Positions 19,158-24,266 of a stretch of 41,935 nt of DNA are shown here, piece after piece. Source of the DNA: Candidatus Omnitrophota bacterium (GTDB taxonomy: Bacteria > Omnitrophota > Omnitrophia > Omnitrophales > Aquincolibacteriaceae); NCBI GenBank assembly GCA_043803685.1, contig JAZDJU010000075.1, forward strand, positions 1-41,935, in the 5' to 3' direction. A model generated the notes under the pieces. The model had not been told where the DNA came from. It worked only from the letters and a program-made list of their open reading frames with translations, and made no database searches. Each line of letters starts with the position of its first letter. Position 1 is the stretch's first letter. The translations under genes were made by a program, and so were the position numbers.

Positions 19158-19257
19158 CTAGTACCGTTTCAAGATTTAATTTTTGGGTGAACGGTACTGT
19201 CCATAAAGCAGATTGGAATTGCGGAACCCCACAATTTCAATCTTGAAGCTGTACTAG
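19158..19257. repeat. CTAG-bounded palindromic element, copy 3 (MITE/REP-like)
   Basis: TIR CTAGTACCGTTTCAAGATT / AATCTTGAAGCTGTACTAG (17/19 match); colinear with 1760-1857; the right CTAG is the atpD stop. Confidence 0.8.
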
Positions 19258-20666
19258 AAAGCCAGAGGCCCGACCATGTAAAACTCTTCTTCGGAGCGCT
19301 TATCATGGCGTCCCGCCAATATTTCTTCGCACCCCTTGATGGAATCTTCGATCGTTACATAGTAGCCTTTTTTTCCGGTATAGGCTTCGGCGACCGTGAA
19401 GGGTTGCGTCAGGAAATTCTGGAGTTTTCTCGCGCGGTCGTAGATCAGACGATCCGCGGGGGAAAGCTCGTCAAGACCGATCACGAGTACCAATTTTCGC
19501 AACTCTTCGTACTTGTAGAAAGTCCGGATCACTTCCTGGGAAACCTGGTAATGACGCACCCCAACCACTTCGGAATCCAGGTTCGCGCAGGAAGACTGCA
19601 AAGGATCGATCGCGGGATAAAGACCCAACTGCACGCGTTCACGAGAGAGAACCATCAGGGAATCCAGAAAGGTAAAGATCGCAACGACCGCAGGGTCCGT
19701 GAGGTCGTCAGCTGGAACGTAAACAGCTTCGACACATGTCACAGAACCCGAAAGCCCGTCCCCGCTCCGGATCCGCTCATGAAATTCACTAGCCTCCGAG
19801 ATCAATGTCGGCTGATAACCTGTCTCGGACGGCACACGACCCAACAAAGTTGAGATCTCCGCGCCGGCCTGAATGAAACGAAAAACATTATCCACGAAAA
19901 GCAACACATCGTGATTGGCCTGCTGCAATGTTTCGGCCAGGGTCACACCCGTCATCGCGACGCCGTAACGCGCGCCGGGGGGCTCATTCATTTGCCCGAA
20001 GGTGATCATGGTCTTGGGGAGAAGTCCGTGATTATGCAATTCCCAAAAAAGCTCGTTTCCTTCACGGATACGTTCCCCGATCCCCACAAAAACGCAGGTG
20101 CCCTGGTGCCGTGTGACAATGTTATGGATGATCTCAAGCGTGATCACGCTCTTGCCAAGTCCCGCGCCTCCGAGAACCCCGGTCTTGCTTCCCTTAACCA
20201 GCGGGAAAAGAAGATCAATGATCTTAATCCCGGTCTCCAACACTTCGAATTTACTTGCCGTGATCGCCTTGGCCCGCAATGTTGTCTCAAGGGTATTGCG
20301 CCGGATCGATCTGTATTCGGTCGCCTCGATCGGCCCCTTTTGGTCGATCGGCTGTCCCAACACATTGATCGCGCGCCCGTACATCACATCCCCGACGGGG
20401 ACCTGGATGGGATGCCCCAAAGAAATGGCCTTCGAATTCCGTTGAAGATTCTGCGTCGAATTGATCGCGATACAACGCGCCACCTGATGGGCCCGGTGCT
20501 CCGCGACTTCCAGAAATATTTCCTTATTATCGATCGAATTGACCTTGATGACCCCATAAATGGAAGGAAGTTCCTGGATCGACTGGAACTTCACGTCCAC
20601 CACGGGGCCCTGGACCGAGATCACACGCCCGATCGATTGTCCCTTCTCGAGATCATCCTTCTGCAT
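19254..20666 (-). CDS. atpD: F1-type ATPase beta subunit (atypical paralog)
   Basis: [18 protein letters not shown]-loop [55 protein letters not shown]. Likely start MQKDD at 20666. Confidence 0.95.
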
Positions 20667-21501
20667 AAAGCGCCCTCGCGGCAAAAAGTTCCCTCATGCT
20701 CTGGTCGACCACTTCATGACGGAATTTAAAATACTGTAAACGCAATTTTTGGTTGAGTTCCTGGATCTTTTGCGTGGCATCTTCCAGGTGGGAGAACCGC
20801 GCGCCCACCTCCGCCAAACGGCTCATGCCAAAGATATCCCCCAGTCTCTGCCCGACCCACAGGAATGCAAGATATTCCAAAATGCTAATGACCGAGGTCT
20901 CAAAGATGAATTGGGACATATCCGCGACTGCGTTCTTTTCCTGTTCGGGCCCTGTCATCGGGAGGAGCGAAGCAACTTCGATCCTGTAATTGACAAGGGA
21001 CAGCGCCCTTGGGAATACGACCTGGATCGACTCGAAATGGCCCGCTTGAAGCTGCGTAAACAAGTAATCCCTCAATTCATTGGCTTGAGAATACCTCTGC
21101 TCATCCACGAGCCCGGGATAAGCCGTGAAGGACACCTTGGAATGCTGAGCATAGGACCTCCCTTGTTCCCCCACGACCACGAGGGCGCCGCCGCGTTCTT
21201 TGAGAATGCCCAGGGCGCCATTCAGGACCCTCGTGTTCAATCCCCCGAGAAGCCCCCTGTCGGAAGTCACGGCGACAATTCCGACACGCCCTTTCGAAGA
21301 ACCCAAAAAAGGATGTTCAATGCGTGTCAGATCAATGGAGCTGAAAAAATCCGCCAAGGACTTCTCGAAGGGCTCAAAAACCTTCAGCTTCTGCTCCAAC
21401 GTCCGGAATTGCAGGATCGAGACAGACTTGAGCACTCCAAGGATCGAGCACAGGTTCACATTGAACAGAATATCTTTTTTAAGTTTTAAAAGCGGGATCA
21501 T
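20653..21501 (-). CDS. atpG: F1-type ATPase gamma subunit (divergent)
   Basis: [25 protein letters not shown]...ATQKI...L...R; lies between atpA and atpD. Confidence 0.85.
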
Positions 21502-21519
21502 GGGCCCTTCGCAATGAGT

Positions 21520-23064: not shown

Positions 23065-23773
23065 TTCGAAGTGTCTCTTTAAGTTTCCAGGCAAGACTGC
23101 TATCGATCACGACTGAGCCGAGGGACAAGTAAAAGCCCAGGATCAATGTCTCATCGACCTTTTCGCTGATCTCCACCGACCGGCCAATCTTTGCGTGAAG
23201 CTTTCCTATCAAAGTTCTTTTGTGAACCTCCGAAAGCGGTGCCGCTGAAACGATCTCAACCCGGTTCACATCCTCCGGAATATTGAGCTGGCTCAAACCA
23301 TTAAAGTCCGACTCCAAAGATTCCCGAACCCATTCCGACTGCAACGATTGATGGACCTTCTCCGGCAAACTAGTCTTCAAGACCTGAAAGGTGACTTCGC
23401 GCGCTTTGCCGGTCAGCTCCTGGTTCCAGTTCTCTTCAAGAAGTTTACTGGCCGACCGTGCCCGTTCCATGATCATCTCACTTTCCTTACGAGCGCGCTC
23501 GAGATGGCCTTGTTTTTCCTTCACCCCCTCATCGATCAGTTGTTGGCGGACCTTTTCGGCGTCGGACTTGACCTTGGCGAATGTTTCGTCGTAATAGGCG
23601 TCCGCCTCCTTAACCCTCTTCTTGGCCTCCGTGAGACGGTTCTCGGATTCCTTGGTCAACGTTTCCAGACGCGAAGAAGCCTCGCTAAAATGACGCCGAA
23701 TAACCCCTTTAAGGATCAGGATCAATACTCCAAAAATAGTGATCTGGATGGTGAGTAAAAGCAGAACAGTCAT
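23039..23773 (-). CDS. atpF: F0 subunit b fused to a delta/OSCP-like C-terminal domain
   Basis: N-terminal TM, b-type coiled coil, and C-terminal VEIVSAAPLS...IGRSVEISEKVDETLILG...GSVVIDSSL typical of delta. Confidence 0.82.
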   Translation of the reverse strand: MTVLLLLTIQITIFGVLILILKGVIRRHFSEASSRLETLTKESENRLTEAKKRVKEADAYYDETFAKVKSDAEKVRQQLIDEGVKEKQGHLERARKESEMIMERARSASKLLEENWNQELTGKAREVTFQVLKTSLPEKVHQSLQSEWVRESLESDFNGLSQLNIPEDVNRVEIVSAAPLSEVHKRTLIGKLHAKIGRSVEISEKVDETLILGFYLSLGSVVIDSSLAWKLKETLRNEKFRKNH

Positions 23774-23791
23774 TTGGCCTCTCTCAATCGG

Positions 23792-24019
23792 TTAAACAGG
23801 CGCATAAAGCTGGAAAAGCACCAACAAAGCGATCACGGAAATAGCGGCTCCGAATACGAGCAAAATGATCATCGCGGTAAAGATCTTGGGGGCTGCGGAG
23901 GGATTCCGGCCTAATGCCTGAATACTCGCATGCCCTCCGGCCGCAATGATCAGGGACGGTCCCAGAACAGCGATCGCAAAAATAAAAACCACCTCTAAGC
24001 CGTGTTCAATGCCGCCCAC
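23792..24019 (-). CDS. atpE: F0 subunit c-like proteolipid lacking the conserved carboxylate
   Basis: 75 aa helical hairpin with a GRNP loop; GTG start with GGAG RBS; Ala at the Asp61/Glu-equivalent position. Confidence 0.85.
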   Translation of the reverse strand: MGGIEHGLEVVFIFAIAVLGPSLIIAAGGHASIQALGRNPSAAPKIFTAMIILLVFGAAISVIALLVLFQLYAPV

Positions 24020-24266
24020 TTTTTCTCCGTTCGATAATGGCCAAGACCCGGTTAGAAAGCACCCGGACCACTCCCTGTGAAATGAGGATCTCTTGGTTGT
24101 CCACGATAATCGTACCAGAACGTAATCGACTAAGCAAAGGCTTGTGGTTCACAAGGATCTCAAAAGTGCCGCTCTTTCCTGGGAATATGACTCGCTGGGC
24201 CTTCCCTTCGAACACGACGCCCCCGGGACCGACGATGGAAAGATCAAAAGAATGCGCGAGAGCCAT
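24006..24266 (-). CDS. atpC: F1 epsilon subunit, N-terminal beta-sandwich only
   Basis: LSIVGPGGVVFEG...PGKSGTFEILVNHKPLLSRL...G...ISQGVVRV; 86 aa. Confidence 0.85.
   Translation of the reverse strand: MALAHSFDLSIVGPGGVVFEGKAQRVIFPGKSGTFEILVNHKPLLSRLRSGTIIVDNQEILISQGVVRVLSNRVLAIIERRKSGRH

Follow-up and report, generated by a model that had tools for sequence, protein, structure and literature searches.

The window analysed here is a 41,935-nt contig (JAZDJU010000075.1) of the Candidatus Omnitrophota bacterium assembly GCA_043803685.1, and it carries on its minus strand a six-gene F-type ATPase cassette (between positions 19254 and 24266) that has no gene for subunit a and whose c subunit has lost the carboxylate at its ion-binding position. 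The cassette is real and conserved, and is no artefact. The best overall explanation, which is fairly probable, is that it encodes an ATP-hydrolysing rotary motor that is uncoupled from ion flow and probably works for a secretion machine and a giant protein encoded beside it. The family of loci has been published and its mechanism has been left unexamined; the a-less layout, here also lacking the carboxylate, represents a novel form of F-type ATPase.

Organization and integrity of the cassette

The gene order was epsilon-c-b/delta-alpha-gamma-beta, and all six products scored over their Pfam family cut-offs and matched NCBIfam models as well, which confirms the order and positions given in a preliminary description of this DNA. 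The genes, all on the minus strand, are atpC for epsilon (24006..24266; PF02823, 51 bits; 86 aa, beta-sandwich only), an atpE-like gene for subunit c (23792..24019; PF00137, 27.6 bits), a gene that joins b to a C-terminal portion of delta (23039..23773; PF00213 positions 100-167 of 172, and a full-length but weak match to TIGR03321), atpA for alpha (21520..23094; likely start ATG at 23064), a divergent atpG for gamma (20653..21501; PF00231, 125.7 bits), and atpD for beta (19254..20684; likely start ATG at 20666; TIGR01039, 555 bits against a cut-off of 463). Neighbouring genes overlap or are spaced by 20 nt or less, and the stop of the upstream giant open reading frame (ORF) shares the sequence TAATG with the epsilon start. 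The short epsilon was considered as a trait of the cassette and rejected, as canonical Omnitrophota epsilons are short too. Promoter and terminator scans gave signals at chance level only. Among sequencing runs, none of RNA was listed as containing this DNA, and the one DNA run, with a small share, was uninformative.

In comparisons with two relatives of the same genus, the nonsynonymous rate (dN) was 0.04-0.19 and the synonymous rate (dS) 0.69-1.54 across all six genes, corresponding to dN/dS of about 0.03-0.14, with dS near saturation. Since dN was low relative to dS in every gene, the operon is not decaying and is under purifying selection, in agreement with the earlier description. The source genome comprises 2.89 Mb in 133 contigs (91% complete, 6.6% contamination), and the named close relatives are Omnitrophota.

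Absence of subunit a

A gap of 280 nt follows the beta gene, and then gspE begins; since the product of atpB has about 220-290 aa, no atpB fits into this gap. A search with ATP-synt_A (PF00119) over the contig and the genome found a single atpB, on contig C37, inside the complete canonical F operon that is the housekeeping ATPase of the source genome, separate from the cassette. A custom profile, derived from 29 subunit-a sequences of canonical and N-type enzymes, likewise found one atpB in this genome, and the earlier statement that the cassette has no subunit a was thus borne out.

For a wider comparison, 100 loci were fetched around the betas most similar to that of the window among the best matches listed, so that the subfamily of the window is over-weighted, and 20 further loci were added; one canonical operon and one lone beta were dropped, and 120 cassette loci, including the two of the source genome, were analysed. 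The profile detected subunit a in none of these 120 loci, its highest score being 9 bits against 246 and 278 bits for true subunits a. Among 64 hand-picked genomes, whose counts do not represent a prevalence, atpB never occurred twice and was not found in 31, including the single-contig, cassette-bearing genome G155. The orphan atpB that the preliminary description had named as refuting its reading was therefore found neither in the source genome nor as a second copy in any of the 64, and this candidate was rejected: 20 of 33 atpB sites were fetched, and all lay beside canonical c, b, delta, and alpha genes. Inserted genes were also rejected as substitutes for subunit a; those inspected were a membrane TPR protein, sensor or response-regulator proteins, and a small unrelated gene, each confined to one locus. 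Because the search for V-type subunit I was weak (matches in 25 of 32 genomes, 9 of them over the cut-off), V-type A was used instead, and it scored over its cut-off in all five atpB-less genomes tested.

Loss of the carboxylate in the c subunit

In characterised F-type enzymes, the c-ring carries ions past subunit a. The c subunit of the window has Ala58 (codon GCC at 23846-23848) at the position of the ion-binding Glu, and neither of its helices holds an acidic residue. A sequencing error was rejected because GCC is two bases away from both Glu codons and Ala is shared by the two relatives of the same genus. The gene nevertheless remains conserved, with dN/dS of 0.03-0.07 against these relatives, and the RNP of the c loop was invariant in all 81 aligned copies.

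Across 117 cassette c copies, the ion-site residue was Glu in 86, Gln in 16, Ala in 5, Thr in 3, Ser, Gly, and Val in 2 each, and Phe in 1, and the carboxylate is thus replaced in 31 copies. In the control set of 30 canonical, N-type, and mycoplasma loci, Glu was present in every one of the 26 c sequences recovered. When 88 cassettes were placed on a tree, the 28 loci without a Glu-bearing c all fell inside one 38-member subfamily, that of the window, within which the Glu state changed five times, at least three of these changes being forced by well-supported branches. The best 120 of 3851 database c matches had Glu (102), Gln (17), or Ser (1). In five genomes where atpB was not found (G025, G203, G248, G256, and G301), the search for short F-type c subunits turned up a Glu-less one only.

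In a subfamily comprising loci L099, L109, L110, L113, and L170-L172, a second, strongly divergent c paralogue stands beside the normal c, which suggests a mixed ring. One c cluster mixes records labelled Deltaproteobacteria with an Omnitrophota record.

Catalytic head and stalk

The catalytic motifs quoted earlier for alpha and beta were present: the P-loop, catalytic Glu, and Walker B of the window beta are intact, and its alpha has the arginine finger. All 102 cassette betas retain the Lys of the P-loop, the catalytic Glu, and the Asp of Walker B, and 91 of 93 cassette alphas retain the arginine finger; the P-loop reads GGAA, not GGAG, in 34 of the 102 betas. The previous designation as a functional hydrolase stands as far as intact catalytic residues and selection are concerned, and hydrolysis itself is predicted from the motifs. 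Tandem alpha genes occur in two loci (L075 and L078), and the two alphas without the arginine finger are possibly extra copies from these pairs.

The N-terminal helix of canonical and N-type alphas is absent from cassette alphas, including that of the window, where a short threefold repeat, EKITD, opens the protein in its place (23000-23064). The predicted model of b/delta (predicted local distance difference test, pLDDT, 87) has an N-terminal membrane helix, a single long helix, and an alpha/beta head that aligns with delta. It also matched V-ATPase chains about 220 aa long, with 200-224 aligned columns and template modelling (TM) scores of 0.48-0.57, and the length of these chains suggests that they are subunit E.

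Conserved linkage to a secretion-like operon and a giant protein

Beta is followed by gspE in 99 of the initial 102 loci, whereas the sequence of the remaining three stops at a contig edge; all 18 cassettes added later also have gspE after beta. Epsilon lies between gspE and gspF in five loci, and in one locus a peptidase gene lies among the atp genes. The machine encoded downstream looks type II secretion-like because its pilin scores over the GspG cut-off and GspK is present; GspE, GspF, GspK, and the secretin were matched below their NCBIfam cut-offs. Nine gene orders occurred among 87 complete cassettes, that of the window being commonest (60). The order is non-canonical, as described before, but with nine variants it is not the telling feature. 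Of 151 genomes sampled from across the phylum, 87 had a cassette-type c. The cassettes of L024-L026 and L161 yielded no epsilon gene.

On the other side, the cassette is preceded by a giant surface protein of at least 5842 aa (24266..41794, minus strand), which consists of Ig-like repeats followed by a helical tail and runs off the contig end. Its C-terminus forms a module of about 240 aa, hereafter the U module (24266..25000, minus strand), with one transmembrane helix at about 24370-24440 and a short cytoplasmic tail; the predicted model (pLDDT 86.5) has a beta-sandwich, a three-helix bundle, and the one membrane helix, which is conserved in sequence. A U module precedes the cassette in 80 of the 84 loci with enough upstream sequence, directly so in 76, and is fused to the C-terminus of the giant in 33 loci including the window. 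The other U modules are separate proteins with signal peptides and contain one or two repeats. Among 75 members, Pfam gave no consistent family; Foldseek gave no match at E 0.001 or better; VIA-align returned generic three-helix bundles only (Z up to 10.3), the beta-sandwich part being barely tested; and Atlas returned only unnamed Omnitrophota clusters.

A W-K/R motif opens the U helix in 26 alignment rows, every one from a locus with Glu-bearing c, and in none of 27 rows from Glu-less loci. A pairing of this Lys/Arg with the Glu of c is only a lead from the alignment, because 27 further rows from Glu-c loci have no Lys/Arg there and the kin are not independent.

A second a-less cassette is present in the source genome (contig C130, 9500-26196), in which two Glu-bearing c genes flank b/delta; this locus also encodes a giant of 3017 aa and a U protein that terminates in a GGDEF domain. 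The preliminary description was incomplete in these respects, as it overlooked the carboxylate loss in c, the second cassette on C130, the fixed link to the GspE operon and the anchor of the giant protein, the conserved U module, and a publication of 2023 considered below.

Proposed mechanism and alternatives

Published accounts describe the stalk as normally anchored on subunit a. In the proposed mechanism, alpha3beta3 would hydrolyse ATP and turn gamma-epsilon and the c-ring without ion flow, while the b/delta-C stalks would hold the head. Because subunit a is lacking, the stalks would need another membrane protein as their anchor. The helix of the U module, here the C-terminal anchor of the giant, may be this partner and take the torque; if so, the motor would help to move the giant fibre through the secretin by threading, reeling, or turning it. 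The firmest element, that an ion-uncoupled motor serves the secretion-like machine, is likely. That the U helix is the coupling point is possible, though rather doubtful, and the full picture of an F1-c-ring motor without an ion channel, geared via one conserved membrane helix and spinning or reeling a giant surface fibre through a type II secretin, is more tentative still.

Several points weigh against this mechanism. Type II secretion is normally powered by GspE alone, and synteny shows co-regulation, not contact. A purely mechanical ring has no need for the Glu that 86 of the 117 c copies have, and no locus outside the subfamily of the window is without a Glu-bearing c, which tells against a solely mechanical function of the entire family. 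Four cassettes (family f34) have no adjacent U module, a point qualified by genomes G155 and G120, in which U modules are encoded elsewhere. Finally, one locus of the source genome (L153; contig C105, 1-10439) has a giant tail, a U module, and gsp genes and not a single atp gene; it may share a motor in trans. Its U module has a PilZ-like tail and a divergent helix, and its GspE is fused to a receiver domain.

It is unlikely that the enzyme is ion-coupled through something that replaces subunit a and has escaped recognition, be it a borrowed canonical a, V-type subunit I, or the Lys/Arg-bearing U helix; the subfamily of the window would then be a degenerate or uncoupled offshoot. The prevalence of Glu among both the cassette copies (86/117) and the best database matches (102/120) is consistent with this reading, as is the restriction of W-K/R to 26 rows from Glu loci, with 0/27 in Glu-less ones. 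However, one helix is unlikely to provide two half-channels, 27 Glu rows do without Lys/Arg, and few independent changes lie behind the pattern. Moreover, the c subunit of the window is still conserved without an acidic helix residue, and 31 of the 64 genomes have no atpB to borrow.

Equally improbable is an export ATPase resembling FliH-FliI-FliJ, in which b/delta, F1, and gamma would unfold or feed the giant and the c-ring would be only a membrane dock or pore. The alignment of the b/delta-C model with the V-ATPase chains of about 220 aa (TM 0.48-0.57) and the joint absence of the delta N-domain and the alpha N-helix argue for it, and a published link of N-ATPase b to subunit E and FliH, taken from the accessible part of that literature, was counted in its favour. 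On the other hand, F1 is cytoplasmic, whereas standalone U proteins have signal peptides and the giant has a single terminal anchor, which indicates Sec export; the gamma-epsilon shaft and the conserved c loop suggest that the rotor was kept.

Mere co-regulation without physical linkage, with the cassette acting locally to drain ATP or to regulate, or being a relic carried along by a mobile operon, is very improbable, for although the C105 locus has no cassette and cassette-type c occurs in only 87 of the 151 sampled genomes, all subunits are under purifying selection, the linkage to gspE persists through nine gene orders, and genes of the two systems are interleaved.

Relationship to known systems

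In phylogenetic trees, 35 cassette betas fell on one side of a branch with a support of 100, the corresponding value for the alphas being 92, and both were separate from canonical sequences, including those of Omnitrophota themselves, and from N-type sequences. The cassette alpha joined the single mycoplasma Type 3 sequence tested (support 96-99) on a very long branch. With four N-type references, the cassette was not nested in the N-ATPase clade in either tree, and a clade uniting cassette and N-ATPase alphas was not rejected by the approximately unbiased test (p-AU 0.38).

Seymour et al. (2023; PMC10066038) report, for every class of Omnitrophota, 'symbiotic' F-type ATPases next to genes for type-4a pili, and place their alpha close to that of mycoplasma Types 2 and 3. 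The locus of the window is of the same type, as its alpha belongs to a divergent clade separate from respiratory alphas, secretion genes lie less than 10 kb away (gspE is 280 nt after beta), and the host is one of the Omnitrophota. Contig PLLJ01000052.1, included as a symbiotic locus in Table S8 of that paper, is a close relative of the window, its gamma being 81% identical. In the 28 of 66 matching rows of Table S8 that were available, atpF/H, atpA, and atpD are given and c, gamma, and epsilon are unlisted; the accessible parts of the paper are silent on the absence of a, the loss of the carboxylate, and the anchor. They name a type-4a pilus, whereas the machine of the window, with GspG over its cut-off and GspK present, looks type II secretion-like. 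Giant genes have been tied to type II-like secretion loci in the available portions of two preprints (10.1101/2023.11.21.568195 and 10.64898/2026.06.07.730766). In the literature searched, in which subscription papers were mostly outside reach, no description was found of the missing a, a Glu-less c, or the anchor module, and the available part of the Ace Lake paper (PMC8542988) does not mention the locus.

Types 2 and 3 and the N-ATPases are used here as defined in the accessible parts of PMC3369863, PMC12994834, PMC4154653, 10.64898/2026.10.01.756066, and 10.1101/2021.01.01.425057. According to those of PMC3369863 and PMC12994834, mycoplasma Type 2 (gliding) and Type 3 (MIB-MIP) are seven-gene clusters without a, b, or c homologues and with a 12-helix membrane protein. 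They resemble the cassette in having an F1 apart from ATP synthesis and next to surface machinery, and an alpha without the N-terminal helix. Unlike them, the window keeps b/delta and c, and its proteins score below the cut-offs of the Type 2/3 models (beta, 420 against 850 and 385 against 570 bits; alpha, 395 against 600 and 286 against 520 bits).

The N-ATPase (atpDCQRBEFAG) shares with the cassette a b subunit bearing only the C-terminal part of delta, with no separate delta, so that the b-delta fusion was correctly called N-ATPase-like; the c-b-alpha-gamma order and the occurrence beside a housekeeping enzyme are also shared. In contrast to the reference N-ATPase loci, the window has no atpB, atpQ, or atpR and does not follow the D-C-Q-R-B-E-F-A-G order, and its c has neither the carboxylate nor the Na+ ligands. 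Compared with canonical F1Fo, the beta and alpha of the window score over the atpD and atpA cut-offs and retain the catalytic F1 residues, but subunit a, a full delta, and the helix-2 carboxylate of c are missing. FliH-FliI-FliJ is likewise a stalk-ATPase-shaft module tied to a secretion system, but the window has genes for an alpha/beta heterohexamer, epsilon, and c, and its partner is type II, not type III.

Ring and stalk are retained across a phylum-wide clade that has no a; in one subfamily the carboxylate is lost too, with the rest of c conserved. A ring without a and carboxylate isolates a mechanical role for the c-ring, and the cassette provides a testable system for the idea of a common ancestry of rotary ATPases and protein translocases as well as a candidate power source for giant-protein handling in host-dependent bacteria. 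If the geared motor proves true, it would add a class to the known kinds of work done by ATP-driven rotation, and it would be a living example of an F-type ATPase that handles macromolecules while still possessing its ring and stalk. Matches to alpha and beta in Omnitrophota do not imply an ATP synthase. The accessible part of a 2026 preprint (10.64898/2026.06.07.730766) gives alpha/beta in 125 of 176 genomes and gamma in 30; divergent gammas of cassettes could explain this low gamma count.

Neighbouring genes

Downstream of the cassette, the minus strand encodes an assembly ATPase of the GspE/PilB type that carries an MshEN and a C-terminal PilZ domain (16790..18973), a GspF/PilC platform protein with profile matches (15458..16720), a peptidase MA-like exported protein that recurs in cassette loci (14652..15449; PF13485), and the major pseudopilin GspG (14248..14682; TIGR01710, 139.8 bits against a cut-off of 88.85). 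These are followed by minor pseudopilins of the GspI/J/K type, PilM-PilN (GspL-like), and a GspM-like protein (10099..14591), most of which score under curated cut-offs, and, past two opposite-strand genes, by an ExeA-like AAA ATPase, a GspB/C-like protein, and the secretin (3570..6899). The interruption of this gene run (7481-9999) consists of a plus-strand PAS histidine kinase and a TPR gene. The three pilT-family genes of the source genome are on other contigs.

MshEN, PilZ, and GGDEF domains recur in cassette loci, which suggests that these loci may be under cyclic di-GMP control. A standalone MshEN gene, encoding the cyclic di-GMP-binding domain, lies between beta and gspE in L037 (12420-12875) and many other loci and is sometimes doubled.

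At the contig edge (41790-41935), the giant ORF runs on to the end of the contig in another frame; its last ~47 codons are set apart by a shift of one base in a run of G near 41795, which is either an edge assembly error or real. The source genome has 17 open frames of at least 2500 aa, the longest exceeding 10,000 aa.

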